Source of the DNA: Candidatus Latescibacterota bacterium
GTDB lineage: Bacteria; Latescibacterota; UBA2968; UBA8231
Direction: 5' to 3'
NCBI GenBank assembly: GCA_965200315.1
Contig: OZ241362.1
Coordinates: forward strand, 2,347,117 to 2,411,116
DNA length: 64,000 bases
A program made the position numbers and the translations under genes. Shown here one piece after another: positions 34,023 through 61,108 of this stretch. Numbering within the stretch: the stretch's first letter is position 1; the number at the start of each line of letters is the position of its first letter. The notes under the pieces are model-generated. The model did no database searches and was not told the DNA's origin. It was given only the letters and a program-made list of their open reading frames with translations.

Positions 34023-34112
<90 letters not shown>

Positions 34113-41678: not shown

Positions 41679-41688
41679 ACGGTCGAAT

Positions 41689-42723: not shown

Positions 42724-42762
42724 GGAATGGCCTCCTATTTCTCTCTTTGATATCCCGTGCAC

Positions 42763-45700: not shown

Positions 45701-46020
45701 GTCTGGCCGCCGACGCGCAGTTCCTGTGGATCGCCGTCCTTGACGATGCCACCCCAGATCAGGCCATCCCTATAGATGACTTGGTCAGTCGAGCGCGGAA
45801 AGGTTACCCCGGAGCCGGAGGTGAGTGGGTTGTACCCGGACGAGCCGTTGTGCTCAAACCACATGGCCATGTTGTTGATGTTGAGCAAGGCGCGCCCGCC
45901 GAAGTCGTTTTCCTGCGTGGTTTTGGCAGCGCGATACGCGCTCGGTCCGCGGCTTTGGACCGGGCCGGCTACGCCGAGCAAAAGCCCAGCGGTCGCCAAA
46001 TAGGTGACAAACTTTTTCAT
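42763..46020 (-). CDS. large secreted protein with T9SS type-A C-terminal sorting domain (1085 aa)
   Basis: Signal peptide MKKFVTYLATAGLLLGVAGPVQS. The C-terminal part, roughly 85 aa (VFPNPYLG ... IRIFDMSGTLVRTI ... WDLQNHNALPVASGMYIAHIEL ... KLAVIQ), fits the Por secretion tail pattern. The body has no recognised catalytic domain. Confidence 0.8.
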   Translation of the reverse strand: MKKFVTYLATAGLLLGVAGPVQSRGPSAYRAAKTTQENDFGGRALLNINNMAMWFEHNGSSGYNPLTSGSGVTFPRSTDQVIYRDGLIWGGIVKDGDPQELRVGGQTYAIGTVPGRIISKGVAEDPADPSVRIYRIRRDYQTADLRLDASESLGIGLSAVTDSDEEALRAQYEQDWREWPHQKGAPYYDNDGDGEYNPDIDEPGVAGADQVAWFVINDLDVGAAQSLYGSKPIGLEVQVLLWGYARTDALGDVIFKKFTVIYKGTSATPDTARIEDMYFAQWSDPDLGNYGDDFAGADIDLSLGYVYNSINDDSHYVPFGLAPPAVGYDFLQGPAVPVFQKDENGDPLLDEDGNLVLDESSEAIFNFGRRLGYRNLPMTSFVYFAAGSAIDDPELGEYIGTEEWYNLLRGFQPQPDIGNPVPYTNPLTGDGTFFTLDGDPTTAQGWNDGIPLPAGDRRIVLNTGPFEMALGDTQEVVVALLGGISTDRLRSVSKLKFNDQFVQDAYNSFFEVPKPPTQPNVRVAELDQAIFLDWGWDDESIQATEGEGSPGFEFEGYNLYQLPSAEATLSQGVRVATFDIENGVTTILGIALDEESGVVLDVPLQIGIDFGLRRNTTITQDHIRSGPLVNGQRYYFAVTAYNRATAEEAANTTLESTPQNLICVPQEPPPGTRYLSKPDTAITPEHTSGISEGEVEVVVVNPTFTTGHNYQVRFGADEEGHTVWSLIDETDGGKILLADQFEIGPGDERAAIYLPDHGFELMVLGPPLALSGWEWEGSERWLTGINWGGSALGGGADVGPNFFGSSLGGADLKAIEIRFSRTNTQKGYRYLRGGDPNYGFQDFADVPFTAWEVDSDPPRQVNIGFVENSGSTSENGTWDLASEDPDRGLGGREYLFIFDSDYSDAPLDQYGEGKSILADAVTFDIHAALWGTLRSGDHEMDMLEDGQILRLIPYRVNSADDVFSFLVPGRDENAEFLKEDIEKINVFPNPYLGVNMAETSRYSHFVTFSHLPSKANIRIFDMSGTLVRTIEKDDPSQFTRWDLQNHNALPVASGMYIAHIELPDHGMSRILKLAVIQEQQFLENF

Positions 46021-46037: not shown

Positions 46038-49000
46038 TTACAAGCCCAGTTTGATCCCTAAACGGATCTGGCGCGGCGAGCCAAACAGGTCTCCACCTTC
46101 GGTGTTCCAGTAGTGCTGCCGATTGGCCAAATTGATGGCCTCGTATAGCTGCCGGTACGTATCACTGCCACTGGCTGCAATAATTTGGCTGCTCAGATCG
46201 GGGTTGGTGAGGAAACCGTCGTCCTCGGCACTGCCGGTGCGGCCGTACACGTTAATCACGTTTTTGCGGTTGAACAGATTATAGACAGAGAGATAAAGCT
46301 GTGCATCGGCACCGAACAGACCAAAGCCTTTATCCACTTTCAGATCAACCTCAAACGTCCAAGGCGTCGAAGAGGCGTTGATGCTTTCTAAAGGCTTGCG
46401 CGAGCGCGGATCGTCGTTGGCGAGGATGCCACCCTCTTCGGGGCCGCGCTGGCCAATGGACCCGCTCGACAGGGTGAAATTGTGGCCGCTGCTAAAGTAA
46501 AACAGCAGGTTGGCCCCCAGATTCTCTAGGATCGGCCCACCGTCGTTGTCGGCAAAGCGATAGTCAACAAAGATGTTGCCTCGATGCGCCTCATTAAAAT
46601 CCAACGGCGAAATGATGGTGGGCAAGTTGGTGTTGTTCTCAACCCCAGAAACGGCCGAATTGGTCGATGAGCCGGTGCCGCGAGCATCCGACAGGGTATA
46701 GTTAAGCTCAGTGCGCAACCGATTGATACGACGCAACTTGAAGACGAACTCCAAACCCTTGGTCGTAGCAAAGTCGCCGTTTTGCAGGAAATTGTACGCG
46801 CTGGCGTTCTTCGCGCTCGCCGAAATGTTCTGGCGCTGAATCTGCAACTGCCCTTTTACGTCGCGGTAGAAGCCAGTGATGTCGAAGGAAGCCATGTCGG
46901 TAAATTGACGTTCAAAGCCGATCTCGTATTGGGTCGTGCGGATCGGCTCAATGTCGAAGGCCGTGGGCACGGAGATGAAATTTTGGCCGCCTAGCTCCAA
47001 GGCCAGCCGTGCCCCGCCGGCGTACATGGAGCGCATGGCTGGCATTTGCGAGAAGCGGCCGTACTGCACGTGGAAGACCGTCCGATCCGACACTGGAAAC
47101 GAGAACCCGAGTCGCGGGCTGAGTTCGCTAAACGTGCGGGTCTTGGTCATTGACTCGAGATTGATCGTATAGAGCGAATCGGTGCGCACCGGGGCTTCGG
47201 GATTCTTGAAGCGCCAGCTATCGACATCGAAGTAATCCCAGCGCAGGCCGGCGTTCACGATGAGATCATTGTATTCGATCTTGTCCTGTACATAGGCCGA
47301 GGCCATCACCGGATGGCGCGGTGCCTCCAGCCCTTCGCCTTGGTCCTTGCGGCCAAAAGCGTCGAAGCCGAAGTAATCGGAGCGGCTGCTGTTGCGGATC
47401 AAGGTCTCAAAATCCGCAAGGCTGCCCTGCCCGTCGGGCAAGGTTTCGGCGGTGGCGATCAATTCATCTAGCACTTGGTCGGCACTTATGCCGCCGGCGT
47501 AATACCGATCGTAAACCGCGTCTAAGTCGGGGTATGTGGTGGAGATGGCTCTGCGGAGGGCACTGGTCCTGATGTCAAAGCGGCGCGAAGTCCAGTACTG
47601 ATAGTTGAAGCCGACCTTGAACTGATGGAGGTCAGTTTGGTGCATCAGGCTGCCACCCCCCCCGTAGTAGCTCTCCTCGGCTTTGCCATAGGAGGAGGCC
47701 AAATCGCCCGTCCTAGCAAAGGGGAAGCCGTTCAGATCGTAATCCCGCAGCGAGATGCCCTGACTGGAGTACGGCGTGAAATCCGGGTTGGCTTGGGCGA
47801 CAGCGAGGCTGTCGTTGTAGAGCATGAACGCATCGCCGAAAACCGGATCAAAGTACTCGCGCGCTTGGTTGTAGAGGCTGGCGTTGAATTCGTAAAGGGT
47901 ATTGGCATTGAGGAGGTGAGTGCCGCTGACATGGAGCAGGCCCGTAGCCCGATCGGCCTCGGGCAGCCGCTCGGTATTAAAGGCACTGTAAACAGGCAGC
48001 CCATTAAATTCCTGGTCTTCCCCTGAGTACAGGCCCGTGACCCGCACCTGAAAGGGCTGCAAGTCAAAGAGCAGGGTGCCGTTGAACGTCATCGCTTGCA
48101 AACCTCGATGATCGATGTTGCCCGGACTGATGGCTAGATCAACCGTATCTGGCACCGCGTTGTCCTCGGCGTCCTTGCGCCAATGCACCCGGCCGCCGCG
48201 GTCACCCGAATCGACTAAGTCGGCAAACTCAAAGCCCTCCCAGAAGACGGGTGGGGAGTCGCGAACCCAGCGCTGCCCGGCCAGAAAGGCTCGCACCTTC
48301 TTGCTGCCGACGACCGGGCCGCCAGCCGTGAACACTTGGGTGGAATACCCATAAGAATACGTGCCGAAGCGCTTTTCGTAGGGGGAGGTGAAGTTGTCCG
48401 TCTCGCTCAGCAGCCCGAATTCCCAATTGGAGGGGCCGGTGCGTAACTCCTGCAAGATGATGCCGGCGTTGGCCCCACCGTACTCGGCGTTGAAGCCCCC
48501 GGCCTGTAGCTGGACCTCCGCTAGGGCTTCATCTATCAGGTTGACTGCTACTCCGCCAGTGACCGGATTGCGGACGGTGGCCCCATCGACGTAGTAGCCG
48601 ATCTCGTCCGAGCGCGAGCCGCGCACATGCAACGTGCCCTCGTCATATACCACGCCCGGCTGTAGGTTTATGACACTCGCGACGCCTCTGAACGGCAGAA
48701 GCTCTATGTCCTCGGCATCAACGATGCGCACCGCATTGGTCGCGGTTTTGTCGATGATCGGCCGCTCGGCGCGAATTACCACCTCATCGACTTGGATATC
48801 CGAAGAAGTCAGGTCAATGTCGAGATTCGTAGTCAGGTCGGCGGAGACCCGCACATCTTCAACGATATAATCCGCGTAGCCGACATAGGTGGCCTTGAGG
48901 GTGTAGGTACCCGCCGGCACGTTGAGGATAAAGAAGCGGCCCTTTTCGTCCGCTGTGGCCCCTAACTTGGTATCCATCACCACGATATTGGCATGGGGCA

Positions 49001-49136
49001 GCCCATCCCCGGTGGCGGCCTCCTTGACGACACCAGCTATTTTGCCACCCGTACTGGCCTCGGCCGGAGCCAAGCTCAGCGCGAGCAAAACGCCCAATGC
49101 GGTCAAGACGCGAAAAACGTCAGCAAATTTGGTCAT
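46038..49136 (-). CDS. TonB-dependent receptor with N-terminal carboxypeptidase-regulatory-like domain
   Basis: Signal peptide, then GKIAGVVKEAATGDGLPHANIVVMD...GTYTLKATYVGY (CarboxypepD_reg-like). Plug region VVIRAERPIIDKTATNAVRIVDAEDIELLP. Long beta-barrel. AAGGAGG sits before the ATG. Confidence 0.9.
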   Translation of the reverse strand: MTKFADVFRVLTALGVLLALSLAPAEASTGGKIAGVVKEAATGDGLPHANIVVMDTKLGATADEKGRFFILNVPAGTYTLKATYVGYADYIVEDVRVSADLTTNLDIDLTSSDIQVDEVVIRAERPIIDKTATNAVRIVDAEDIELLPFRGVASVINLQPGVVYDEGTLHVRGSRSDEIGYYVDGATVRNPVTGGVAVNLIDEALAEVQLQAGGFNAEYGGANAGIILQELRTGPSNWEFGLLSETDNFTSPYEKRFGTYSYGYSTQVFTAGGPVVGSKKVRAFLAGQRWVRDSPPVFWEGFEFADLVDSGDRGGRVHWRKDAEDNAVPDTVDLAISPGNIDHRGLQAMTFNGTLLFDLQPFQVRVTGLYSGEDQEFNGLPVYSAFNTERLPEADRATGLLHVSGTHLLNANTLYEFNASLYNQAREYFDPVFGDAFMLYNDSLAVAQANPDFTPYSSQGISLRDYDLNGFPFARTGDLASSYGKAEESYYGGGGSLMHQTDLHQFKVGFNYQYWTSRRFDIRTSALRRAISTTYPDLDAVYDRYYAGGISADQVLDELIATAETLPDGQGSLADFETLIRNSSRSDYFGFDAFGRKDQGEGLEAPRHPVMASAYVQDKIEYNDLIVNAGLRWDYFDVDSWRFKNPEAPVRTDSLYTINLESMTKTRTFSELSPRLGFSFPVSDRTVFHVQYGRFSQMPAMRSMYAGGARLALELGGQNFISVPTAFDIEPIRTTQYEIGFERQFTDMASFDITGFYRDVKGQLQIQRQNISASAKNASAYNFLQNGDFATTKGLEFVFKLRRINRLRTELNYTLSDARGTGSSTNSAVSGVENNTNLPTIISPLDFNEAHRGNIFVDYRFADNDGGPILENLGANLLFYFSSGHNFTLSSGSIGQRGPEEGGILANDDPRSRKPLESINASSTPWTFEVDLKVDKGFGLFGADAQLYLSVYNLFNRKNVINVYGRTGSAEDDGFLTNPDLSSQIIAASGSDTYRQLYEAINLANRQHYWNTEGGDLFGSPRQIRLGIKLGL

Positions 49137-49169: not shown

Positions 49170-49883
49170 TCACATCAGGTGCAACCAGTCGTCCAAGAGA
49201 AAGGTTACACGCCCGATCAACAGCGAGACCCTCGCCATAATGGTGTAACCAAACGAAGCCCCAAACGAGATCATCAAAAACCATATCCCCACCTTGGAGA
49301 TATGACCCGCCGTGCCGGTGTGCTCGACGGAAAAAAAGAAATAAACCAACACCCCGATGACCCCCACTAGGACGATCAGCAAATCGAGCACTTCCAAGCT
49401 CCAAGTCAGTTGATGTAATGCAGGCTCTATTTGGGCTAAAATAAAGGAAGAGATATAGCGAGGAATCGTCAGGCCGGCCCCGAGCCCGACGAAGAATGCA
49501 AAAGCATAGCGGCTGAGCCACCCAAAGCGCAGCGAAAAGCGCGTCAACATCAAAAGCCCGAGCACCATCGGAGCCAACAGCCACCAATTGGGCGTCTCCC
49601 CTTCTTCCGTGTTGGTCCATTCGGCGATGAGCTCGCCGTAGATCGTCGGATACCAGTACTGGCCAAACATGTAAGCCGCTGCCACACCGACGAAAACGTG
49701 CTCGGCAAACTTGAAAAGCGGGTTGTCCTTGTAGAGAAAGCTATAGAGTGCCAAGGTCATGCCCGCCGCGACGATGATGCCCAAACCCGTCCAGTCCGCC
49801 GCCAAGATTCCGCTAGCCATCAAGCCGATATTGACTGCGGCAAACAGCAGGATCAAGCCCAAAAAGACATACGTATTGCGCAT
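49170..49883 (-). CDS. polytopic membrane protein, unknown family (237 aa)
   Basis: About 7 hydrophobic helices. 8 nt after the upstream gene and 33 nt before the TBDR gene. Confidence 0.75.
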   Translation of the reverse strand: MRNTYVFLGLILLFAAVNIGLMASGILAADWTGLGIIVAAGMTLALYSFLYKDNPLFKFAEHVFVGVAAAYMFGQYWYPTIYGELIAEWTNTEEGETPNWWLLAPMVLGLLMLTRFSLRFGWLSRYAFAFFVGLGAGLTIPRYISSFILAQIEPALHQLTWSLEVLDLLIVLVGVIGVLVYFFFSVEHTGTAGHISKVGIWFLMISFGASFGYTIMARVSLLIGRVTFLLDDWLHLM

Positions 49884-49891
49884 GGCGGAGA

Positions 49892-50722
49892 TCAGTTCCC
49901 CTGCTCGGATGAAGTTCGCCGAGCGACGAAGTACGCAATATTGCCGATAATTACAAAGAGGGCGATGACCAAATGAGTCATCGACTGGGCGCTCATACCC
50001 ATGCTGGCACTGCCGCGATGGTCAATCAGGGTCTCGTATTCGGCGGCACCGGCTAGGCCGCCGAGCAGGCCACCGAGCTGTCCCGAGTCGAGGAAAGGAT
50101 AGAGATCGGGAGCCATCACCGCGGTGCAACCAGCGACAAAGGTAAAGCCGTACTTCTCCTGCCCATAGGGGATCCACCAAAACTCAATCGAATCCCCGGC
50201 AGCCAAGTCTAAGACGAGGTCAAAATCGCGCAGTGAGCGCAAACCGCGCGTCAAATCCAAATCGCCGGTATCCACGCCCCATTGGTCCTGCGGGAAGGCA
50301 CTGCGGAAGTCTTGCCCCATATTGAGGATGACACTGAAAGTGCCCGGCTTGTAGCCCATAAAGGCGTAATCCACCCCGTACTCCAAATCGAATTCAGCCG
50401 CCATTTCCTCCAGCACCTGTTGGGCCAGCCCCGGTGCCTCGGGCCATAGACAAATGGCCACCACCTTGAGATCGCGGCGGAAAGCGTGGCGCAACATGGC
50501 ACGCGACATCGGCAGCATTTCAGGTTGCGTGCTGGCACCATAGGAGAAGGAGACCAGCACAATGTCCCCCGCGTCGAGTTTCTCCAACTGGTTGTACGCA
50601 GCTTTTACTTCGTTCGTCGGCGTGATCGGCAGGGAAATTCCGGCCATCAACGGCCACGCCACGCTAATAAATACTAGGGCGAAAATGATGCGGCGGTCGA
50701 TAGCGAGTAGTTTGTGCATCAC
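49892..50722 (-). CDS. bitopic membrane protein, unknown family (276 aa)
   Basis: N-terminal and C-terminal TM helices flank a soluble domain of about 200 aa. The start (GTG 50722 or ATG 50719) overlaps the upstream stop. Confidence 0.75.
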   Translation of the reverse strand: MMHKLLAIDRRIIFALVFISVAWPLMAGISLPITPTNEVKAAYNQLEKLDAGDIVLVSFSYGASTQPEMLPMSRAMLRHAFRRDLKVVAICLWPEAPGLAQQVLEEMAAEFDLEYGVDYAFMGYKPGTFSVILNMGQDFRSAFPQDQWGVDTGDLDLTRGLRSLRDFDLVLDLAAGDSIEFWWIPYGQEKYGFTFVAGCTAVMAPDLYPFLDSGQLGGLLGGLAGAAEYETLIDHRGSASMGMSAQSMTHLVIALFVIIGNIAYFVARRTSSEQGN

Positions 50723-51375
50723 TCAGATCCTCCACCCAAATACGAGCGCTCAATCCCAAAAATGATCCGCAACGAGGTAGCAATAGCACCCAACGACACG
50801 CCGAGCAAGATGCCGCGCTTAGCCGCCAAGTTGGGCACATTCAACAGCCAGTCGGTCGCCAGTGGAAAAAAATCGGAAAGCTCTCTACCAATGGGCACGC
50901 GGCCCAGCATGACGATGACCGCCGCGATCAACAGCACCGCCGCTTCGGGCGTGCGAGCGCGGAAGGTTCGGTACGCCGCCGAGGCGATGAAAAAGGCTAA
51001 AATCGAAAACATGGTAGAGGCGCAAGGCACGTGAATATTGTCGAAGAGCCACTTATAACCCCCGGCCTCAGCCTGAGCGGCGAAGGGGCCTAAACCGTCG
51101 TTGTACACGACGAAGATCATCATCACCGCAAAGCTCAAAATAGCGATCAAGCTATAGGCCCAGCCGGCGACGCGCTGGCGGATCCGCTGCCAGTGCAGGT
51201 TGAGCAGGCTGTATAGTCCGAGCAAATAGGAAAACGCGAAGACTATGCGCACCCATAGCGCCATCTCTCGCTCCAAATTCTGCGCGTGGCCGTGGGGTAT
51301 GTAGTAGATGACAATGCCGAGCATACCGAAGGCAAAGGCAATGACCAGCGGTAGCGTTCGACTAAAAAAAATCAT
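50719..51375 (-). CDS. polytopic membrane protein, unknown family (218 aa)
   Basis: About 6 hydrophobic helices. ATG at 51375 with AGGAGG 6 nt upstream, embedded in the end of the upstream gene. Confidence 0.75.
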   Translation of the reverse strand: MIFFSRTLPLVIAFAFGMLGIVIYYIPHGHAQNLEREMALWVRIVFAFSYLLGLYSLLNLHWQRIRQRVAGWAYSLIAILSFAVMMIFVVYNDGLGPFAAQAEAGGYKWLFDNIHVPCASTMFSILAFFIASAAYRTFRARTPEAAVLLIAAVIVMLGRVPIGRELSDFFPLATDWLLNVPNLAAKRGILLGVSLGAIATSLRIIFGIERSYLGGGSE

Positions 51376-51384
51376 CGCGCCCTC

Positions 51385-52629
51385 CTAGGGGCTAAAAAAG
51401 TGCGTCAACTGCGACCATCCCAAGAAGGTCTCCAGCAGCGTGCCCAGCACCAAAGCGGCCAGCAGAATGGCTTTGCCCCCGTCTTGGCCTTTAAGGCTAC
51501 CGAGCATTCGCGGTTCGCCCGACAGATAGGCGCTGGCTGCATAGAGCTCTTCGCCGAGCAGGGTGTAGTCGCATGTAGTGACGAAAAAGGGAAGTTGGGT
51601 AAAGGCGTCCGTGCCGGCGATCTGGATTGCCCCGGTCGTGGAGCCGGTTTCGGCCAACAGCAGCGACTCGGCGTAGAAATATCCCATCATAATATGAGCC
51701 GCCGGGCGGTCGCGGACCATGATGCCCTCGACTGCTGCCGCATAGCTGAACTGCTCGGTGCTGGCGACGAAAACGTGGTCGGGGTTAAACGCGTCGGGCC
51801 GCCCCGCCTCCACATAAGAGGCTTTCACCGTCTCCTGACTCACCGACATAACTACCGGGTCAGGAGCCACCACCCGCAGCGCGGTGTCGTATTCGGCCGT
51901 ACGCCGCGCAAGCCGCCCCAAGATATTGACCGCGGCAATGGTTGGTATCTGGCTCATGTCGCGCAAGCCGTGGATGAAAAGCACCGGCTTGCCCATCTCG
52001 GTCGCCCGCCCCAACGCCTCGTCCAGTGCCTCTAGCCCGGCGATGCGACGGATCTTGAGCTCGCGCCGCCGCGCAATGCCAATGTAGCCCATGATAAGCC
52101 CTGAAAAAACGAGGCACAACACCAAGTTATTGACCTTGGCGCGGTTAAAAAAATTGCCTTTGGACTCGGCGTTGACGATCACTTTGCCGCGGATCGCGCC
52201 CCCGGCCGACCGCACATCGATGTGAAAGTAATAAGTCTTACCATCTTCTAGCGGCGTCTTGCCACCCGCGCCGGCGAATTCCTCGACATTGACATAGTGA
52301 TGATTCTCCAGATCGGCCCCACGACCAAAGAGCCCCGGTGCCTCGGACATCAAATTCCCCGTTGCCACAACCTCGGCCACGACGCGAAAAGGCCCGCTGG
52401 GCGAATCGGCGATGGCGACCTGATACATCGCATTTTCGCTGATCCGACGATCTCGCGGCCAAGTCAGCGTAATGCTGCCCCCGTCGTCGTTGGGCGTGTC
52501 GAAGGCTTGGACCTCGATCGGCGGTTCAGGATGTGCCAGCAACGTGCTGAGTCCTCGTTCCGCATTCTCCGCCGCGCTCGCCAACGGCCAAGCCAAGACC
52601 AACACAGACAGCCAGTTTTTTGCTCTCAT
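51385..52629 (-). CDS. membrane protein: signal peptide + FN3-like ectodomain + TM + cytoplasmic domain + C-terminal TM (414 aa)
   Basis: MRAKNWLSVLVLAWPLASA, DDGGSITLTWP (FN3-like), TM LVLCLVFSGLIMGYIGIA followed by RRRELKIRR, and the terminal helix AILLAALVLGTLLETFLGW. Confidence 0.75.
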   Translation of the reverse strand: MRAKNWLSVLVLAWPLASAAENAERGLSTLLAHPEPPIEVQAFDTPNDDGGSITLTWPRDRRISENAMYQVAIADSPSGPFRVVAEVVATGNLMSEAPGLFGRGADLENHHYVNVEEFAGAGGKTPLEDGKTYYFHIDVRSAGGAIRGKVIVNAESKGNFFNRAKVNNLVLCLVFSGLIMGYIGIARRRELKIRRIAGLEALDEALGRATEMGKPVLFIHGLRDMSQIPTIAAVNILGRLARRTAEYDTALRVVAPDPVVMSVSQETVKASYVEAGRPDAFNPDHVFVASTEQFSYAAAVEGIMVRDRPAAHIMMGYFYAESLLLAETGSTTGAIQIAGTDAFTQLPFFVTTCDYTLLGEELYAASAYLSGEPRMLGSLKGQDGGKAILLAALVLGTLLETFLGWSQLTHFFSP

Positions 52630-52632
52630 GCC

Positions 52633-53748
52633 TTATTCCTCAATCAACTCCACATTCGCCCGTGGCACTATCGCCTGCTCCCCGTCTTCAAACTCCACGG
52701 CCAATACCCGCACCCGCGCCCCGGATTCGACCTCGCACAACTCGGTCGGCAAGTCGCTAACGCGCCCAATTTGCCCAAAATAGGGCATTCGAATCACGCG
52801 CAACAAATCGCCCACCTGCAACCCTTCCTCACCCGTCCGCACCTCTTCTTCCTCTTTGTCAGCGGCTGTAGGGACGATAATTTCCGGCCGCAAGACGCCA
52901 GCGCGGATCTGAGTCGCACCGGCCATAGACGCATCCATGCCAGCGTACGCTTGCAGAATATCAAAGGTCTTGCGGGCCATGGCGACGCGGCCAAAGCCCT
53001 CGGTCGCTACTACCGTCAGGCCGATCTGCTCAGTCCCGGTGATAGCCACGCCCAAGTCGCGGCCAAGCAAGTCGCGCAAGTCGCTGTCGCGCAGGCCGCC
53101 GCCGATCAACCCCACGGCACCTGCTTGCCGAGCCTGTTCCACGGTCTCCGCGCTAATCAGGCTGCCGACCACCACAATCTTGCCCGCAACTTCCGGGCCC
53201 AGCGACTCGGCTGTGGCGTCTGGAGCATCAACGGCCAGGTGCAGCGCACCCCAGCACTCGCCTCCCACGCCGAAAATACCTTGGATATAAGCACCACGCG
53301 CTGCGACGCGCATACCCTCCTCGGCAAAAACTTCCTCTACGATCCCATCGACGTACGCCAGCACTTCGACCGGCTTGGGAGCTTGCCGCAATATCACCTG
53401 CCCGGTCACCGGCGAAATGCTCTCGACGGTGCCGCTGACCGGAGATTCAATCGTGGTCTTGAACCAGCGAATAAATGGCTTGGTCTCGGCGAGCGGCTCG
53501 TCGGCTTCGACCCGGTCGCCCTCTTTTTTGAGCATATAGCCGGCTAGCTCTTGCGGCGAGATGCCCAAGCGGTTGACCAAGTTGAGGGTCGCCACCTCGC
53601 CCGGCAGTTCGGTGCGAGCCACAACTTGGTCTCGGCGCACAGCTTGGCCGCGCTCGACGACAACCTCGCCTTTGAGGGGCAACCGCCGCTCTTTGTGGAC
53701 GACTGCGTGTTGCGTCACGCGCAGGCCAGGGGTATAAGCATGGGCCAT
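52633..53748 (-). CDS. cytoplasmic protein: hybrid-barrel-like N-domain + Rossmann-like segment + KOW-like C-terminus (371 aa)
   Basis: LPLKGEVVVERGQAVRRDQVVART, GKIVVVGSLISAETVEQARQAGAVGLIGGG, and VGDLLRVIRMPYFGQIGRVSDL. 3-nt gaps to both neighbours. Confidence 0.75.
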   Translation of the reverse strand: MAHAYTPGLRVTQHAVVHKERRLPLKGEVVVERGQAVRRDQVVARTELPGEVATLNLVNRLGISPQELAGYMLKKEGDRVEADEPLAETKPFIRWFKTTIESPVSGTVESISPVTGQVILRQAPKPVEVLAYVDGIVEEVFAEEGMRVAARGAYIQGIFGVGGECWGALHLAVDAPDATAESLGPEVAGKIVVVGSLISAETVEQARQAGAVGLIGGGLRDSDLRDLLGRDLGVAITGTEQIGLTVVATEGFGRVAMARKTFDILQAYAGMDASMAGATQIRAGVLRPEIIVPTAADKEEEEVRTGEEGLQVGDLLRVIRMPYFGQIGRVSDLPTELCEVESGARVRVLAVEFEDGEQAIVPRANVELIEE

Positions 53749-53751
53749 GAG

Positions 53752-55533
53752 CTACTCGTATAGGTTTAACGCCTGCTGCCAGTCGCTTATCTGATGGCGG
53801 CGGTCGCGGTCTGTCGCCATCTGGATGGGCCGACCGCGACCGTCCAGCACTAGTCCTGCGACCCCGCCGCACACCCTTGCATTTAGGGCTTGTCCCGGGC
53901 CAGCACCCACATCCCAACGCCGCGCCGGTTGGAGCGAAACTTCAACCTCCTCGCCATCGGCCAAGGGCATCCACTGTAGCTGGCCAAACTGTAACTCGCC
54001 GGTTTGCCGCCCGCTGGGCAGTTCAATTTCGTATTGGAGGCAGACCTCGCCGCCCTTACCCTCGCCGACGGGGGCCACACAAGTGCCCAAGTAGATCAGA
54101 CAATCGCGCTCAAAAACCTCGGTGGCAGCCCGCTCGTCAACAGTCGAGAGCACCCCTAGGTGGGGCATCATAAAAATGCTATCGACGGCCAATCGGGTGA
54201 CGCCTTCGGGCTGAAAGGCATCTATGAGCATGGCGCAACTCTGCTCGCGGCGGGGCGCGTGCGAGAGCACACCACCGCTGCCGACTAGCATGTCTAGCGC
54301 CATCATCTCGACCAAACTCTCGCCGGTGGCACCCTGCTCAAAGACATCGGCTAGCGTGCGCTTGCTCTGCACCCCCTTCAATCCCACTGCCAACGCCCGG
54401 TGCTGGTCAAAAGCCAAGCGCAAAGCCTCGCGGGCAATGGCTTGCTCGACTTGCAATTCCTGCATGAGCTGGGGGATGGTAGTAGGGCGGATCATCTTGT
54501 TTTTGATCCGGTCTCGGAGGTCGGCCTCCTCAATATCGAAAGGAACCCAGCGCATGATTTGGTCGAGTCCGGCTTCGGCTAGCACGTTGGAGACGCTGTA
54601 GGACATGCCGAGATTGGCACTGACCGTGCGGTTGAAAACGCCGTCGAAAACGCTGAACACATCGGTCGTCGCCCCGCCGATATCCACGCCGACGACGTTG
54701 ATCCCCTGTTGGCGGGCAATAGCCTGCATGATCTCGCCCACTGCCCCAGGCGTCGGCATAATCGGCGCGCTGGTCCAGTCCATCAGCTTGCTATAGCCAG
54801 GAGCCTGCGCCATGACGTGTTCGAGGAAGAGATCGTGAATGACGTGCCGCGCCGGGTCCAGATTTTCCTTTTCGAGTACGGGGCGGATATTCTCGGTAAC
54901 GGTCAGGGCCATCTTACCCCCCAGCGCCTTTTCAACCTCCTCGCGTGCGTCCTCATTCCCCGCAAAAATAACCGGCAACTTGAAGTCCGCGCCAAAGCGG
55001 GGTCTAGGATCGGCTGCGCTGATGAATTCGGCCAACTCGACCACGTGACTGACAGTGCCGCCATCGGTGCCGCCCGACAGCAACACCATATCGGGACGCA
55101 ATTGGCGGATACGCTCTATTTTTTCGTGCGGCAAGCGCCCATCGTTGGTAGCGAGCGCGTCCATGACGATCGCCCCGGCTCCCAAGGCGCAGCGCTGGGC
55201 GCTCTCGCCGGTCATCGCCATCACCACACCGGCAACCACCATCTGCAACCCACCGCCCGCACTGCTCGTCGAGATGTAGATATCGACCCCGACATTGCCG
55301 TCAGCCGGTGCGATAATCCGCTCGCCATCGAGGATCTGCCGCCCGGAAAGCTCCTCAACCTCTTGAATGGCGTTGAGCACCCCCCGAGTGACGTCTTCAA
55401 AGGGGGCCTCAACCGTGGTTGGGGCCTCGCCGCGAAAGGTCTGGCGATACCCTTCGTCCTTCTTTTCGATCAGGATCGCCTTGGTCGTCGTACTGCCGCA
55501 GTCCGTGGCGATAACTACGTTGAGGTCATCCAT
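53752..55533 (-). CDS. MutL/GlmL-like ASKHA-fold ATPase (glutamate mutase L family homolog), orphan
   Basis: VVIATDCGSTTTKAILI, LLSGGTDGG, VVGVDIGGATTDVFSV, and the C-terminal GGVAGLVLDGRGRPI. ATG at 55533 (TTG at 55557 is possible). Confidence 0.8.
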   Translation of the reverse strand: MDDLNVVIATDCGSTTTKAILIEKKDEGYRQTFRGEAPTTVEAPFEDVTRGVLNAIQEVEELSGRQILDGERIIAPADGNVGVDIYISTSSAGGGLQMVVAGVVMAMTGESAQRCALGAGAIVMDALATNDGRLPHEKIERIRQLRPDMVLLSGGTDGGTVSHVVELAEFISAADPRPRFGADFKLPVIFAGNEDAREEVEKALGGKMALTVTENIRPVLEKENLDPARHVIHDLFLEHVMAQAPGYSKLMDWTSAPIMPTPGAVGEIMQAIARQQGINVVGVDIGGATTDVFSVFDGVFNRTVSANLGMSYSVSNVLAEAGLDQIMRWVPFDIEEADLRDRIKNKMIRPTTIPQLMQELQVEQAIAREALRLAFDQHRALAVGLKGVQSKRTLADVFEQGATGESLVEMMALDMLVGSGGVLSHAPRREQSCAMLIDAFQPEGVTRLAVDSIFMMPHLGVLSTVDERAATEVFERDCLIYLGTCVAPVGEGKGGEVCLQYEIELPSGRQTGELQFGQLQWMPLADGEEVEVSLQPARRWDVGAGPGQALNARVCGGVAGLVLDGRGRPIQMATDRDRRHQISDWQQALNLYE

Positions 55534-55861
55534 GCTTTTGGCTTTCGCGCTGGGCAATGGCCTCCGCGAGTAGGTCTATAGATTGACGGCGCTCCAACAT
55601 GCGCGTAAATCGCTCGTACTCATCTCGCGAAAAAACCAGCGTGGCAAATGGAGCCAAAAAGGTCAGGGCTTGGCTGCCCAAAAAATTGAGGGGGCGGCAA
55701 GCCTCCAATGCCATAGACGCAGCCGCTCCCATGCGGCGACTCACTATAAACTCGGCCAGCCGCTCGGCCAGCGTACGCTCTTCCTCAGACCAACCTACCT
55801 CTGGATCTTCGAGGGCAAAAGCGTGCCGCCACCGCGCTTTTAAACTATCGACTTGAAACAT
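55526..55861 (-). CDS. small hypothetical protein (111 aa)
   Basis: ATG at 55861. One hydrophobic segment (LNFLGSQALTFLAPFATLVF). It overlaps both neighbours (17 nt and 8 nt). Confidence 0.55.
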   Translation of the reverse strand: MFQVDSLKARWRHAFALEDPEVGWSEEERTLAERLAEFIVSRRMGAAASMALEACRPLNFLGSQALTFLAPFATLVFSRDEYERFTRMLERRQSIDLLAEAIAQRESQKHG

Positions 55862-56261
55862 GGCACCGGACGAAACGCGCAACTTCTTCGCGGTTTTGAT
55901 CAAAGCGCAAAAAAACGCCGCGAAAGGAATCCAGCCGACCTAGGCGAGCGGACGGACGTAAAAAAATACCGTCCCGATGTTCGTCTGCTCGACGGAATTC
56001 CGCCCAAGAACGGCACTGTTTAAGGCCGAGATGTTGACTGCTGACGCCGACGCCGTCGAGCGCATAGCGCGTAGGGAAGAAATAGCGCGACAGCGAAGCA
56101 GTCAATGCTCCGAGTGAAAACACCCCGTAAAACCAATGCTCAAAACCGAAAGCGGCGGCCGCTGAGGAAGCGACCATGAGCGCGATTAGCAGTATCGACT
56201 TTGCCGGCCGCTCCCGGCGCAGGGGGTGACTTTCCCAGTGGAGAGAGGCTGCGGAGGACAC
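55845..56261 (-). CDS. small membrane protein, two TM helices + PH-like C-terminal domain (138 aa)
   Basis: GTG at 56261, 10 nt after the SBP stop. The track ORF (to 56495) extends out of frame into the SBP gene. Helices SILLIALMVASSAAAAFGF and FYGVFSLGALTASL. Confidence 0.5.
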   Translation of the reverse strand: MSSAASLHWESHPLRRERPAKSILLIALMVASSAAAAFGFEHWFYGVFSLGALTASLSRYFFPTRYALDGVGVSSQHLGLKQCRSWAEFRRADEHRDGIFLRPSARLGRLDSFRGVFLRFDQNREEVARFVRCHVSSR

Positions 56262-56271
56262 AGCCGCGTCC

Positions 56272-58104
56272 TTAGTACATCTGCGCTTCCTGCGCGACCC
56301 ACCAGTCTTGCAAGCGGACGCCGGGGGGATACCAAGTGACGCCACTGAAGCGCCGGCTATAGGCTTGGGCATTGCGCGGCTTCCACAGGAAGGTGTATGG
56401 CTGTTCCTCGTGCAGGATTGCTTGGAAACGCTGGTAGAGTGCAATGCGCCTTTCCATATCGAACTCGCGGCGATAGTCCTCCAAAATTTGATCAACCTCG
56501 GCGTTGATGAAGCTCACCGCGTTGGAGCCGTTTTCTACGGTCTGGGAGGAATGCCAGATCTGGTAACCGTCGGGCGCGAACCTCACATTGCCGGTCCAGC
56601 CCAGCACCATGGCGTCAAAATCCTTGCCGCGGACCTTCTGTAAAAAAATCGACCAGTCTAACTCGCGCACTTGGCAGTCAATGCCAATATCCTGCAACTC
56701 GTATTGCAAGGTTAGGGCGATATCTTTGCGGATCTGGTTGCCCGAATTGATCAAAATCTCAAAGCGAAATGGCACTAGCTCCCCGTCGATGGTCTTGTCG
56801 AGAATGCCATCCTCGTCGGCATCCTCCCAGCCAGCTTCCGCCAGCAGATCGAGGGCGCGGTCGGGATCGTACGCGTACGGCGCGAGGCCGTGGTTGTATT
56901 CGGGGCGGAACTTGTGGATCGGCCCCTCCACCGTCTCGGCTAGGCCGAACATGATGTTTTCGACCATGCCCTCGCGGTCGGTCAAATGGGTCATGGCTTG
57001 GCGTACCCGCTTGTCGCCAAAAATTGGATGTTTGTTGTTCCAGCCGATGTACATATATCCACCGGCGTAGCTAACGCCTTTGAGGAAGCGGCGGTTGAAG
57101 TCTTCCGACCAGCTCTTTTCCCTAAATTCCAACGGACGCAGAGTGTGGTAGTCGAGGTTGCCGTTGGTCAACTCGATGAATGCCGCGTCGGTATTGTTGA
57201 TGATGTTAAAGACGATCTTATCGACAAAGCCAGGTGGCAGCAGCCCTTCCACATCCCGCCCCCAGTAGTTCGCATTTCGCGTCAGCACGACTTTCTGCTG
57301 GGTGACCAAGTCTCGCTCTGGATCTTCGATTATATACGGCCCCGAGCCTAATACCTTGCGGTTGAAATTTTGATTGAATTGTTCGGCAAAGCGCTCGACT
57401 CGCTCTTTGTGCGGCCCCTCCTCCCAAGAACCATCCACCAAACTCTTGACCTCGACTGGGTCCAGCAAACCCTCCGGATCGTAAAAGTGCTTAGGTAGGA
57501 TACTGAATGAACCCAACATCAAATCGTTGCGGAAATAGGGCTTGTCGCACAGGAAGCTAACCTTGTTGGCCCCTACCTGTTGTACCACCTCGACGGCGGC
57601 ATAGTAGTTGCGCAGATGCGGCGTCAGCACTTGGGGATTGTGGATGACCTTCATGCTGAAGACGACGTCCGCAGCCGTCAGCGGCTTGCCGTCTGAGAAG
57701 TAAACCCCATCGCGCAGCTCAAATGTATAGGTGAGTTTGTCCGCGGAAATGTTCGGGTAGCCTTTGGCGACTAGCCCTCGCAACGCGTAGGGCGGGTCCG
57801 ATTCGGCGTCGAGCAGGCCTTCAAATACGTAATTCAAGACCATGCTGGCACCGGCATCGTTGGAGGTGTACGGATTGAGTTTCTCTGGGTCGGACAGCAT
57901 GTGGCGCACCATCCAGTCGCCGTAGGTCGGCTCTTCTCCGCTCTCGTAGCGCAGCGGCACCTTCGCAGTGCCGTCGAGCACGATGATATCCTTGGTACTC
58001 AGGAGAATTTCCTGCACTACTTCCCACGACGACTCAGCGACGGCATGATCGCCGATACAGATACCCAACCAAGCGGCCACTGCGAACATTTTAACTTTTG
58101 GCAT
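56272..58104 (-). CDS. ABC transporter substrate-binding protein, family 5 (peptide/nickel type)
   Basis: 610 aa with a signal peptide MPKVKMFAVAAWLGICIG. The overall pattern is typical of OppA/DppA-like binding proteins (e.g. GSGPYIIED, NANYWG). Confidence 0.88.
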   Translation of the reverse strand: MPKVKMFAVAAWLGICIGDHAVAESSWEVVQEILLSTKDIIVLDGTAKVPLRYESGEEPTYGDWMVRHMLSDPEKLNPYTSNDAGASMVLNYVFEGLLDAESDPPYALRGLVAKGYPNISADKLTYTFELRDGVYFSDGKPLTAADVVFSMKVIHNPQVLTPHLRNYYAAVEVVQQVGANKVSFLCDKPYFRNDLMLGSFSILPKHFYDPEGLLDPVEVKSLVDGSWEEGPHKERVERFAEQFNQNFNRKVLGSGPYIIEDPERDLVTQQKVVLTRNANYWGRDVEGLLPPGFVDKIVFNIINNTDAAFIELTNGNLDYHTLRPLEFREKSWSEDFNRRFLKGVSYAGGYMYIGWNNKHPIFGDKRVRQAMTHLTDREGMVENIMFGLAETVEGPIHKFRPEYNHGLAPYAYDPDRALDLLAEAGWEDADEDGILDKTIDGELVPFRFEILINSGNQIRKDIALTLQYELQDIGIDCQVRELDWSIFLQKVRGKDFDAMVLGWTGNVRFAPDGYQIWHSSQTVENGSNAVSFINAEVDQILEDYRREFDMERRIALYQRFQAILHEEQPYTFLWKPRNAQAYSRRFSGVTWYPPGVRLQDWWVAQEAQMY

Positions 58105-58141: not shown

Positions 58142-59062
58142 TTACACAAAGGTCAACCATCCGTGCCGGTCTTCGACTCCGACGCGGACCACGGCGAAAA
58201 AAGCGTCTTGTATCTGCGCGGTGATCGGCCCGCACTTTCCACAGCCGATCTGCACTTGGTCTATGGCGCGGATCGGCGTGATTTCGGCGGCCGTGCCAGT
58301 GAAGAAGACCTCATCGGCGATGTAGAGGAATTCGCGCGGAATCCCGCGCTGCTCGACCCGCATCCCCAGATCGCGTATCAGGGTAATGGCGGTGTGGCGG
58401 GTGATGCCCGGCAGGATGGCAAAACACGACTCAGGCGTGTAGATCAAGCCATTTTTGATGACAAAGATATTCTCGCCGCTGCCCTCGCTCACCAACCCAT
58501 CCGTTCCCAAGACAATGCCCTCGTCATAGCCGTTGGCATTGGCTTCGATCCGCACGAGCTGCGAGTTGAGGTAGTTGCCGCCGGCCTTGGCCAAGGCGGG
58601 AAACGTATTCGGGGCCATGCGGTTCCACGACGAGGTGCAAACCGAAACGCCGTTTTTCAGCGCCGCTTCTCCAAGGTACTCTCCCCACTCCCAAACGGCG
58701 ATCACTACGTCAACCGGACACCCCATCGGATCAACCCCCAAGTTCTCATAGCCGCGGAAGACAACCGGGCGAATATAGCAGGCCGCGAGCCGATTGACGC
58801 GGATCGTCTCGAGGATAGCCTCTTTGATTTCCTCTCGCGTATAGGGAATGTCCATGCGGTAGATTTTGGCGGAATCAAATAGCCTGTTGACGTGCTCGTC
58901 AAGGCGGAATACGGCCGAGCCTTTCGCGGTCTTGTAACAGCGAATGCCTTCAAAAACGCTTGAACCGTAGTGTACTACGTGGGAGAGCACGTGGATTTTG
59001 GCGTCGTCCCAATCGACCAATTGGCCATTGAACCAGATCTTATCGCATTTAGGCAGGGGCAT
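58142..59062 (-). CDS. ilvE: branched-chain amino acid aminotransferase
   Basis: [35 protein letters not shown], class IV aminotransferase. ATG at 59062 with AAGGAGG 8 nt upstream. Confidence 0.92.
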
Positions 59063-59137
59063 GTAGAAAACCTCCTTGAGCAAGTACGCGAATAATTAAG
59101 GTAACACCACGGCGAAACCGTTACCAGTGTTAAGCGA

Positions 59138-61108
59138 TTACAACGTTCGCGTATAGGTTACAGTCAAGCTGTTAAACGAGCCGCTGCGCTGGAGACTGCG
59201 GCTGCCGCGCAAGCTGAGCTTGTTGTCGCTGCCGGCCGGATTGTAGTTAAAATTCGCCGCCAGATTCCGGTGTTTGTTGGGAAGGCGACTGAGGGAACGC
59301 AACTGGGCGAGCTCGGAGTATTCGTAATTCCACTGGCGATCGAACCTGTAGGTGTAGGTTGCGCCGGCCGAGTAGTCAGTGCTGGGCGAGTAGGTCATGC
59401 CGAATCTAAGAGTGTATCTGGCGTTTTCCTCTTCGACAATCTGGGTGCCGTTTTCCAAAATCAAGGTGCCGTCATCGTTGGCCGAATAGTTGTAGCGCGC
59501 GTTGAGTGAAAGGTCGTCGAGGATCTTGCGCCGCAGCGAATGCACCATGCTCCAGCCGCGGCGGATATTGCTTTTGCGCGACGACTCGCGGCGATTGACT
59601 TGGCGATCAAAATCGTAAATGATGCGCTTCGCGGAGACGCTGAATCGGTGCGAAAAGGACGCGCCCAATCGCTCGTAATTGGTGCCGATATTGAGCGAAA
59701 TGTCGCGGCTGCGCGAGTTGTCCACAGCGCGGGTGGCGTGCAGGTTCACGCGATGCAAAAAGATATTTTTGAGGTCGACTCTGAGCTTGGCACCCGAGCG
59801 CAGAGTGCCGTCATAGCTGAGGCTCACGCTGTTGTTGAAGGTGTCGCGGTCCTGCTTGGGGTCCCCTGGATTTTCCGAGCGTTTGATCTCGCCAAAGGTC
59901 GCCAATCGCATCGAGTGCCCATCGGCCAAGGGCCAGTTGAAAGAGCCGTTGAGAAAGAGATTGCGATTGATCTCGTCGGAGCTTGGATCGCGGCACGTTC
60001 CGTCCGCCGAGCGCGTGAAGTGGCTATCGCAAAGGCTGGTATCGGGCACCCGCACCGCCAAGCGACGCATGTCGCTGCCTTTGAAGCGAACTCTGGAATT
60101 GAAGACCAGCTTCTCAATCAGCTTGCCCGAAAGGGACGCGTCCCAGCTAAAGTTCTCGCCGAGGCGGTCTTTGCCAAAGAAGCGGTTGTCTAAATCCTGG
60201 ATCGCGTTGGCGGTGTTGGTGTGCTCGTTCTGACTGTACGAGGCGCGGTTTTTTATTTTAAAGCGCCCTAGATCAAACTCCACGTTGGAGGCCAAGCTAG
60301 TGCCGCGCGTTTCCGCCAACTCGGCGCTGACCACCGTGTCGCGCACCACAGCCTCGCCTACTGTAGCCTCGCTGATGGCGCGGCGTGAGAGGCCCCTCTG
60401 AGAGCGGTTTTCAGATAGAGTCAGGCCGACGCGCACCTCGCCGGGAAAGACATAACTCACATTGCCGCTCATCCGCTCACTGCGATCTTTGTTGTGCTCG
60501 AGCGTATCGTCTGTTTTACTCAGCGAAATCGAGTTTTTCAGCTTCTTGCCCGCAATCTCAATGTCGGGCGAGACCCGCAGCGAAGCATTGTAGCGGATCC
60601 CGGTCTCCTTTATGGTGCTGTCGAGGCTGGCGCGGCTAGCGCGGGTGGCCGAGATTAGGCTCGGGGTCAGGTTGGCATTCAGGCTCTTGAATGGACCGCT
60701 GCTCAACGGCTTAGATCTAAATCCAAAGTTAAAGGACTGGCTGCGCGTCTTCTGCTTGTGCAGCGTTACGTTGCGCGTGCTCATGCTGGCACCGAGGCTG
60801 ATGGTGGCCTTTGGGCCGAGAATGGGATAGTTGATTGAAGAGCTGCCCGAGGCATCGTCCTGCCAACTCTTGCCGGTGCTGCGATCGTCGAGGCTAAACT
60901 TCATTCTCGCCCGTGCGTTAATCGTCAGCTTGGAGGTCGAGTCCCCCACCGCCGAGAACCGCACGGGCGTCGAGTAGCTCCAGCTAGGAAACGAATGGTT
61001 CCAAGAGGTTCGGGAACTGGAGCGGTTAAAGTTGAGCGTGTACTGTGCATCGGCCGCCGTCCATGCGACCAACACCAGCCAACCCGCGTACCACAAGACC
61101 GGCTTCAC
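59138..61108 (-). CDS. large outer-membrane beta-barrel protein, unknown family (656 aa)
   Basis: The GTG at 61108 overlaps the rsmA stop (GTGA). Signal peptide KPVLWYAGWLVLVAWTAADAQ. Ser/Arg/Asn/Thr-rich sequence with alternating beta-strand pattern. The 830-aa track ORF is an out-of-frame extension into rsmA. Confidence 0.7.
   Translation of the reverse strand: MKPVLWYAGWLVLVAWTAADAQYTLNFNRSSSRTSWNHSFPSWSYSTPVRFSAVGDSTSKLTINARARMKFSLDDRSTGKSWQDDASGSSSINYPILGPKATISLGASMSTRNVTLHKQKTRSQSFNFGFRSKPLSSGPFKSLNANLTPSLISATRASRASLDSTIKETGIRYNASLRVSPDIEIAGKKLKNSISLSKTDDTLEHNKDRSERMSGNVSYVFPGEVRVGLTLSENRSQRGLSRRAISEATVGEAVVRDTVVSAELAETRGTSLASNVEFDLGRFKIKNRASYSQNEHTNTANAIQDLDNRFFGKDRLGENFSWDASLSGKLIEKLVFNSRVRFKGSDMRRLAVRVPDTSLCDSHFTRSADGTCRDPSSDEINRNLFLNGSFNWPLADGHSMRLATFGEIKRSENPGDPKQDRDTFNNSVSLSYDGTLRSGAKLRVDLKNIFLHRVNLHATRAVDNSRSRDISLNIGTNYERLGASFSHRFSVSAKRIIYDFDRQVNRRESSRKSNIRRGWSMVHSLRRKILDDLSLNARYNYSANDDGTLILENGTQIVEEENARYTLRFGMTYSPSTDYSAGATYTYRFDRQWNYEYSELAQLRSLSRLPNKHRNLAANFNYNPAGSDNKLSLRGSRSLQRSGSFNSLTVTYTRTL

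Follow-up and report, generated by a model that had tools for sequence, protein, structure and literature searches.

Introduction

Reactivases of the DdrA-DdrB (PduG-PduH) and EutA type consist of an ATPase of about 600 amino acids (aa), which belongs to the ASKHA (acetate and sugar kinases, Hsc70 and actin) proteins, and a small partner. They perform ATP-driven work by prying open a partner enzyme. In this work, we analyzed a cluster of eight genes, G1-G8, in which an ATPase of the GlmL/MutL family (G3) is encoded together with the membrane proteins G5-G8. The cluster is located at positions 49170-56261 of a 64,000-nucleotide stretch of a Candidatus Latescibacterota genome (contig OZ241362.1), called here the window, with a G+C content of about 60%. 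In their sizes and pairing, G3 (593 aa) and G2 (111 aa) are similar to DdrA-DdrB and EutA, a likeness that we use as a lead only. In contrast to these reactivases, G3 has no sequence match to the DDR (diol dehydratase reactivase) or EutA families, there is no cobalamin enzyme, and the presumed client is a membrane complex.

Other described systems share individual features with the cluster. Like GlmL/MutL and the Or-4 protein, G3 aligns over the full length of the Pfam MutL model and keeps the ASKHA motifs and LLSGGTDGG. It differs from them in its scores, which are under the family cut-offs, in an extension of about 115 aa, and in its surroundings: it never stands beside a B12 mutase, always occurs with G4, and usually with G5-G8. 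G4 resembles RnfC and NqrA in its initial barrel-sandwich domain, in the alpha/beta domain and small beta-barrel that come after it, and in being encoded beside small polytopic proteins. However, only the first domain is shared with Rnf and the Na+-translocating NADH:quinone oxidoreductase (Na+-NQR). FMN, NADH and Fe-S motifs are absent, G4 has no whole-chain Foldseek match, and no subunit of the cluster matches an Rnf-Nqr family, the RnfC_N and NQRA_N scores of the window G4 being below the cut-offs. In the MreB-MreC-MreD-RodZ system, too, an actin-fold ATPase is joined by membrane proteins with periplasmic domains, some of them bitopic and others small and polytopic, but the cluster shows no homology to the Mre/RodZ families, and within the ASKHA proteins G3 falls into the GlmL/hydantoinase branch, not into that of MreB/ParM. 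The Opp/Dpp importer is a recurrent neighbour of the cluster in the Fibrobacterota-Chlorobiota-Bacteroidota (FCB) group, but none of G1-G8 is a component of an ATP-binding cassette (ABC) transporter.

Pfam and NCBIfam searches at E ≤ 0.01 gave no match to MreBCD/RodZ, to MotA-ExbB-TolQ/ExbD, or to PilM-GspL of type II secretion and type IV pili. No anti-phage defence model of PADLOC-DB v2 matched G1-G8 at the same threshold, and profile searches with G3-G8 against all Protein Data Bank (PDB) sequences found nothing significant. Together with Foldseek, these searches bear out the original prediction, made from the sequence alone, that the set fits no described transporter, secretion, motility or divisome system; the same is true of defence systems. 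In the literature, we found no paper on DUF6754, PF20539, PF13941, GlmL as an ASKHA protein, or the whole system. Since G5-G8 belong to none of the ABC, Rnf/Nqr, Mre, Mot/Exb/Tol, PilM/GspL and known defence families, G3 fails the tests for GlmL, and no such paper was found, the composition of the cluster is outside every described kind of system, although one subunit has already been registered by Pfam curators as a domain of unknown function (DUF).

A Conserved Gene Cluster of Two Modules

Eight minus-strand open reading frames (ORFs) were read in the sequence (Table 1). The starts, overlaps and gaps that had been proposed for them all matched; from G1/G2 to G7/G8 the junctions are, in order, -17, -8, +3, +3, +9, -4 and +8 nt. 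The closest relatives of the window are metagenome-assembled genomes (MAGs) of Candidatus Latescibacterota, in which G5 is 94% identical. In order to find more distant relatives, we scanned one genome per GTDB species with the G5 alignment. The scan gave at least 579 loci, of which the best 80 were taken with 10-kb flanks. Neighbourhood counts below refer to loci with enough flanking sequence, and taxon labels are those of the MAG records. The 80 loci come from Latescibacterota, Gemmatimonadota, Planctomycetota (Brocadia, Kuenenia, Scalindua, Anammoxibacter and others), Methylomirabilota and Nitrospirota. The original prediction had been made dependent on conservation of the neighbourhood in related genomes. 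It turned out that gene order and strand are alike across these loci, that is, in at least five phyla.

G6, G7 and G8 are found downstream of G5 on the same strand in all 74 loci. Upstream of G5, G4 is present in 55 of 67 loci, G3 in 54 of 67, and G2, which also precedes G3, in 51 of 67, so that G3-G4 stand directly upstream of the membrane genes in about 80% of loci. G1 is upstream of G5 in only 35 of 67 loci, mostly from Latescibacterota and Gemmatimonadota. The overlaps of 4 and 8 nt recur in distant phyla, which fits stoichiometric co-production of the proteins. Compared with the window proteins, homologues from outside the FCB group have a median identity of 68% for G3 and 47–52% for G4-G8.

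Thus, the cluster consists of two modules, the membrane core G5-G8 and the cytoplasmic G2-G4, while G1 is a lineage-specific add-on. The core is separable because G5-G8 stand without G2-G4 within 10 kb in 12 loci, mainly of Brocadia/Kuenenia types, and because a Planctomycetota MAG (L070, 3570-10089) carries two complete G5-G8 sets in tandem. The first G5 copy of this MAG has 295 aa and lacks the ectodomain. The loci with G5-G8 only have unrelated neighbours, and no alternative cytoplasmic partner was found among them. G5-G8 is a self-sufficient membrane core. In four loci (L013, L024, L030 and L053), other genes are inserted exactly between G3 and G4. Judging by the conserved synteny, we consider it highly probable that G2-G8 work as one functional system.

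Table 1. Genes of the cluster and features associated with it. Positions are those of the window unless another locus is named.
Feature	Position	Strand	Description
G1	55845-56261	-	138 aa; GTG start at 56261, AAGGA just upstream
G2	55526-55861	-	111 aa; ATG start
G3	53752-55533	-	593 aa; ATG start
G4	52633-53748	-	371 aa
G5	51385-52629	-	414 aa
G6	50719-51375	-	218 aa
G7	49892-50722	-	276 aa
G8	49170-49883	-	237 aa
PilZ-G4 fusion, locus L081	10001-11425		N-terminal PilZ
PilZ-G4 fusion, locus L082	603-2027		N-terminal PilZ
SBP_bac_5 Opp/Dpp/Nik-type periplasmic solute-binding protein	56272-58104	-	Pfam, 254 bits; adjoins G1
TonB-dependent-receptor-like protein	46038-49136	-	Pfam/NCBIfam
Type IX secretion system (T9SS) type A cargo protein	42763-46020	-	1085 aa; Pfam/NCBIfam
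PorV/PorQ-family protein	41689-42762	-	Pfam/NCBIfam
Intrinsic-terminator-like hairpin	41648-41680	-	15-bp stem, 10 G-C pairs, T-run; directly after PorV/PorQ gene
Two OppB/OppC-like ABC permease genes	38264-40603	-	Pfam BPD_transp_1, BPD_transp_1_N, OppC_N; about 9 kb downstream of G8

G3 Is an Orphan ATPase of the GlmL/MutL Family

G3 matches Pfam MutL (PF13941) with 432.4 bits against a gathering score of 27. The match covers residues 7-478 of the protein and the whole model (1-450 of 450). The motifs VIATDCGSTTTK, VVGVDIGGATTDVFS and LLSGGTDGG are present in the sequence. The ASKHA phosphate-1 (DxGxTxxK), phosphate-2 (DIGGATTD) and adenosine (GSGG) motifs are invariant in 22 G3 orthologues (alignment A11), the invariant residues being D11, G13, T15-T17, K18, D284, G286, G287, T289, T290, D291, G420 and G421. 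With invariant nucleotide-binding motifs and a median identity of 68% from phylum to phylum, G3 appears to be a functional ATPase.

Among NCBIfam models, G3 matches GlmL and the ornithine-pathway Or-4 protein best. However, it scores 236.5 bits against the equivalog cut-off of 475 for GlmL (NF040745), 218.7 against 600 for Or-4 (NF040744), and 166.3 against 204.05 for glmL_fam (TIGR01319). A beta-rich C-terminal extension of about 115 aa is conserved in G3 beyond the Pfam MutL match and beyond the match to the GlmL model (8-476). Neither the G3 sequence nor the G3 profile has a significant relative among PDB sequences, and a match to MreB-like_C is below threshold (E = 0.032, 15.2 versus 27.8 bits). 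The Pfam scan of window ORFs revealed no gene for a mutase or a B12-binding protein and no eut or pdu gene, nor is any such family a repeated neighbour across the 80 loci. The original prediction stated that such genes occur nowhere in the 64 kb; this holds for the ORFs checked, which are most of the larger ones, not all. The view of the ATPase as a GlmL/MutL-like orphan agrees with the scores under the cut-offs and with the lack of a recurring mutase. As a bona fide GlmL, G3 is ruled out by the NCBIfam cut-offs and the genomic context. Because it scores under all GlmL cut-offs, it looks like an ASKHA protein of a distinct subfamily.

G4 and the Small Proteins G2 and G1

G4 is a cytoplasmic protein of three domains: a barrel-sandwich hybrid, a PA-like alpha/beta domain and a KOW/SH3-like barrel. 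It had been read as a lipoyl-like hybrid barrel followed by a Rossmann-like segment and a KOW-like motif, and the Pfam scan of orthologues, the AlphaFold2 (AF2) model and Foldseek all support this. In 26 G4 orthologues, Pfam found RnfC_N in 20, Biotin_lipoyl in 19, KOW in 8, NQRA_N in 5 and PA in 2, the matches to RnfC_N and NQRA_N being mostly under the gathering scores. The window G4 itself gave 30.6 bits for Biotin_lipoyl, 23.5 versus 25.6 for RnfC_N, and 17.7 versus 25 for NQRA_N. The AF2 model has a mean predicted local distance difference test (pLDDT) score of 84.9 and a predicted template modeling score (pTM) of 0.67. Foldseek against the PDB produced only domain-level matches, to Spt5 KOW (target TM-score about 0.8), PetP, NdhS, BCCP and BesA, and no whole-chain match above a query TM-score of 0.15.

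The lysine that carries biotin or lipoyl (E-x-M-K-M or D-K-A) is not conserved in the 26 orthologues, which have AETKP, AATQP, AETRP or AENNP at this place. We dismissed G4 as a biotin or lipoyl carrier because the modifiable lysine is variable. The N-terminal peptide MAHAYTPGL is near-invariant, with six of nine positions invariant in both alignments (A2 and A7), yet disordered in the AF2 model. This suggests that it is a docking peptide. With three domains and such a peptide, the build of G4 is adaptor-like.

Two G4 homologues of 473–474 aa, P0189 and P0191, carry an N-terminal PilZ domain with the RxxxR and DxSxxG motifs. P0191 is encoded in L081 inside a complete G2-G8 cluster, which is followed by OppD, OppF and a gene for a 1191-aa TolB/Tricorn-like protein. 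As the fusion sits in a complete cluster, it points to possible control of the system by cyclic diguanylate (c-di-GMP) in some lineages. The Pfam scan found no PilZ domain in the window G4 (371 aa).

G2 contains the conserved motifs HAFA, P..FLES..PLNFIGSQ and LLERR (alignment A8), and no family was found for it in Pfam, NCBIfam or PADLOC. G1 is a lineage-restricted accessory gene. The original prediction described its product as a small protein with two transmembrane (TM) helices and a PH-like domain. Hydropathy and alignment A9 agree with a hydrophobic hairpin ahead of a C-terminal domain that is bacterial-PH-like; for the latter, one G1 orthologue gives a weak bPH_6 match (E = 0.0014).

The Membrane Core G5-G8

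According to the original prediction, only one product of the cluster, the ATPase, has a recognizable family. This is not so: G5 is a member of Pfam DUF6754 (PF20539), with 373.1 bits against a cut-off of 27 over residues 157-409. Also overlooked were the recurrent link to an Opp importer and the PilZ-G4 fusions. By hydropathy, G5 consists of a signal peptide, an FN3-like periplasmic domain, a TM helix, the cytoplasmic DUF6754 domain (about 200 aa) and a C-terminal TM helix. This order is the one originally proposed, and it also fits Foldseek, where G5 gave FN3 matches only. The AF2 model of G5 has a pLDDT of 65.9, with a confident FN3 domain. The best-conserved stretch, residues 290-385, was nevertheless modelled with a pLDDT below 50. 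It contains many invariant Asp and Glu residues, e.g., AIQIAGTD..QLPFFVTTCDYTLLGEELYAASAYL. This stretch could be re-entrant or part of an interface, and might not fold until the complex is assembled.

At E ≤ 1e-3, the DUF6754 family comprises 2207 clusters of 50% identity. In every case, the domain stands at the C-terminus, and the size of the ectodomain ahead of it ranges from almost nothing to about 1000 aa. Long forms with an organism name are mostly from Planctomycetota, and no Pfam domains were found in the ectodomains of the long proteins. G5 is the hallmark subunit of the membrane core.

G6 is polytopic, with about 6 TM helices and the invariant loop or boundary residues R136, R139, R141, H61 and E209 (alignment A4). 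G8 has about 6–7 TM helices and the conserved motifs YKDNP..AEH, WLSR, IPR and FSVEH.G (alignment A5). G7 contains an N-terminal TM helix, an acidic alpha/beta domain of about 210 aa with the conserved motif GAAEYE, and a C-terminal TM helix (alignment A3). The positive-inside flanks indicate that the alpha/beta domain is probably periplasmic. Hydropathy thus agrees with the original description of the 218- and 237-aa products as polytopic and of the 276-aa product as having a TM helix at both ends. According to hydropathy, AF2 and Foldseek, the topology of the core puts domains on both faces of the membrane.

We found no relative of G6, G7 or G8 in Pfam, NCBIfam, PADLOC or the PDB sequence-profile searches, and no recurring family in a Pfam scan of 91 orthologues of G1, G2, G6, G7 and G8. 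The 120 listed G7 homologues all lack a Pfam domain, and each has either no name or the name "hypothetical protein". Tests of paralogy between G5 and G7 and between G6 and G8 were negative. Comparison of the halves of G6 and G8 gave no internal repeats, their alignments have no conserved cysteines, and neither they nor their scanned orthologues match BPD_transp_1.

Possible Mechanism and Function

The evidence best fits one conserved and undescribed system of the cytoplasmic membrane with two modules, encoded by G2-G8. We tentatively propose, with rather less than even confidence, that it acts as an ATP-gated transport or envelope complex. From the sequences, we infer that the proteins assemble into a complex, that the ATPase is coupled to the membrane core, and that the core has a transport or gating role. 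G3 would work as its reactivase and Hsp70-like relatives do, so that ATP binding and hydrolysis change its conformation. G4 and G2 would relay this change to the cytoplasmic DUF6754 domain of G5, and a conduit formed by G6 and G8 would be gated or remodelled. The periplasmic domains of G5 and G7 would contact the substrate, the cargo or the envelope, and the PilZ domain fused to G4 would put the process under c-di-GMP control in some lineages. In the FCB group, the cargo might be peptide-related or envelope-related because the cluster is lastingly linked there to an Opp-type importer and to genes for outer-membrane proteases and receptors.

Several points weigh against this proposal. We know of no GlmL-, EutA- or DdrA-type ASKHA protein that energizes membrane transport. 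Brocadia/Kuenenia-type genomes have G5-G8 without nearby G2-G4, and the ATPase may be dispensable there or encoded elsewhere. The C-terminal half of DUF6754 is conserved and yet modelled with a pLDDT below 50. G6 and G8 have no internal repeats and no sequence-profile likeness to transporter folds, so that their role as a conduit is a guess. Outside FCB lineages, the link to Opp genes is seen in Anammoxibacter only. Finally, an Rfam search of the window and seven loci found no riboswitch or relevant regulatory RNA as a clue to a ligand.

A bolder version, which is possible though somewhat doubtful, is that the cluster encodes an ancient, housekeeping-level envelope machine of a new class, in which a GlmL-type ATPase does mechanical work on a four-subunit inner-membrane core. 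With the same reserve, such a machine would be neither a P-loop ATPase nor an ion-driven stator; it would be used by several phyla with few cultured members (Nitrospirota, anammox Planctomycetota, Methylomirabilota, Latescibacterota and Gemmatimonadota), and would be tuned by c-di-GMP in some of them. The identity of about 68% between the ATPases of different phyla points to an important, strongly constrained role. If G2-G8 is one machine, energy would be coupled to work at the bacterial membrane in a novel manner, with a membrane core on which an ASKHA Hsp70-like ATPase acts. The GlmL branch of the actin-fold superfamily, about whose own biochemistry very little is known, would be placed in a functional context for the first time. 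Among the carriers, Nitrospira, anammox bacteria and Methylomirabilis are key organisms of the nitrogen and methane cycles, and others are from abundant phyla of sediment and soil. The gene set is concretely defined, it includes three membrane proteins (G6, G7 and G8) that have no Pfam family, and Nitrospira sp. KM1, which is cultured and has a complete genome, carries G2-G8.

The actin fold of G3 and its identity between phyla also fit a morphogenetic or cytoskeletal system like MreB-MreC-MreD-RodZ. In this case, G3 would assemble on the membrane and position G5-G8, whose periplasmic domains would act on the wall or envelope. Strong conservation is typical of proteins with many interaction surfaces. 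G5, with its cytoplasmic and periplasmic domains, would correspond to RodZ, G7 to MreC, and the small polytopic G6 and G8 to MreD. The ectodomain of G5 varies in length and is longest in Planctomycetota. Housekeeping and envelope-lipid genes adjoin the cluster in some genomes, which also speaks for the main proposal above: fab, acpP and rnc lie upstream of it in L081, and kdsA, kdsD and plsY in Nitrospira sp. KM1. However, apart from the sub-threshold MreB-like_C match of G3, there is no Pfam signal of MreB, MreC, MreD or RodZ; polymerization is not known in the GlmL family, and a peptidoglycan synthase or hydrolase is not a recurrent neighbour. We regard this explanation as unlikely.

The second alternative concerns the Opp-type ABC importer, which is a recurrent neighbour of the cluster in FCB lineages and is split and interleaved with it in some loci. 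According to this explanation, G6 and G8, together with G5 and G7, would be an accessory or alternative membrane part of an Opp/Dpp importer; they would work with the ATPases OppD/OppF or modulate peptide uptake, and G3 and G4 would be regulators. OppD/OppF-like genes follow G8 directly on the same strand in 14 loci. In L013, L024, L030 and L053, the genes inserted between G3 and G4 encode a solute-binding protein (SBP) and two permeases, orthologues of those encoded in the window (e.g., L024, 4467-8757), and OppD/OppF come after G8. In L022, a contig without G3, the SBP and two permease genes lie upstream of G4, again with OppD/OppF after G8. Nine further Latescibacterota/Gemmatimonadota loci, L081, and the two loci from Anammoxibacter (L077 and L080) have only OppD/OppF after G8; loci of the L018 type, L081, L077 and L080 have no SBP or permease gene within 10 kb. 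In the window, G1 starts 10 nt past the stop of an SBP gene, whose product has Opp4A/NikA-like NCBIfam matches under the cut-off, and the two permease genes lie far downstream of G8 (Table 1). Its linkage to the cluster is found in loci of Latescibacterota and Gemmatimonadota; this SBP gene is a lineage-specific associate outside the conserved core.

Against a role as part of the importer, the surroundings of the cluster are free of Opp genes in Nitrospirota, Methylomirabilota and most anammox (Brocadiales) loci, and G6 and G8 have no signal of BPD_transp_1 or another ABC membrane domain. Full Opp sets already own their permeases. No OppD/OppF was found among the scanned window ORFs, where L018 queries match only an ORF cut at the window end, and weakly (27% identity). 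This explanation thus appears improbable, slightly more so than the morphogenetic one.

The third alternative is an inner-membrane energizer of outer-membrane processes, similar to Ton/Tol, in which the G5 ectodomain spans the periplasm to receptors or proteases. The length of this ectodomain in Planctomycetota, up to about 1000 aa, would allow for this. In the window, a TonB-receptor-like gene, a T9SS cargo gene and a PorV/PorQ gene follow G8 with gaps of 33, 17 and 0 nt, and the terminator-like hairpin after PorV/PorQ (Table 1) is the only strong one on the minus strand in the region of 38–58 kb. Given these gaps and the sole strong terminator, the outer-membrane genes are probably co-transcribed with the cluster in this genome. 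The transcription unit may extend from the SBP gene, or from an aminotransferase gene (58142-59083), via G1-G8 to PorV/PorQ. In other FCB loci, the cluster is followed by the gene for the 1191-aa TolB/Tricorn-like protein with an HExxH motif. On the other hand, outer-membrane neighbours occur only in particular lineages, no subunit has a signal of MotA/ExbB, ExbD or TonB, and the known systems of this kind run on ion-motive force, not on an ASKHA ATPase. We consider such an energizer to be quite improbable.

The original prediction had tied the cluster functionally to the outer-membrane genes that follow it. All three of these genes are linked to it only in L001-L007, L015 and L020, and L008 keeps the TonB-receptor-like gene alone. 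Therefore, the tie stands for this genome and close Latescibacterota; it is absent in all other lineages, and a general functional tie was dismissed because the linkage is lineage-specific.

Finally, a classical GlmL role, in which G3 serves a distant B12-dependent mutase and its adjacency to membrane genes is incidental, has the Pfam MutL score of 432 bits and the top NCBIfam matches (GlmL and Or-4) in its favour, but is hardly credible given that G3 is far under the GlmL, Or-4 and glmL_fam cut-offs, its extra C-terminal domain lies outside the MutL/GlmL models, no mutase or B12-binding gene was found in the scanned window ORFs or recurs in the 80 loci, and about 80% of loci, from five phyla, keep G3 together with G4-G8.

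Other Observations

The 1191-aa TolB/Tricorn-like protein is a beta-propeller protein with an HExxH motif (L033, 15449-19024; cluster 10, 13 loci), and by its sequence it probably has a C-terminal outer-membrane barrel. Its gene is found after OppD/OppF in Latescibacterota/Gemmatimonadota loci and in L081; the Anammoxibacter loci are without it. The Nitrospirota loci instead have a co-directional gene of the Memo family (PF01875) just after G8 (L060, L062, L065, L068, L069, L074-L076, L078 and L083).

Several other features of the window were noted. A minus-strand ORF of 830 aa (59138-61630), kept beside the aminotransferase and SBP genes in related Latescibacterota, has no Pfam or NCBIfam match; by composition, its product looks like an outer-membrane beta-barrel. 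Another minus-strand ORF, of 523 aa (20307-21878), has no Pfam match. A bacterial large signal recognition particle RNA (178 bits) followed by three tRNA genes is located at 33514-34112 on the minus strand, just upstream of a dnaX-like gene (31794-33521). Positions 412-7063 of the minus strand encode an unrelated resistance-nodulation-division (RND) efflux set consisting of an AcrB-like pump, a CusB/HlyD-like adaptor with heavy-metal-binding repeats, and an outer-membrane factor.

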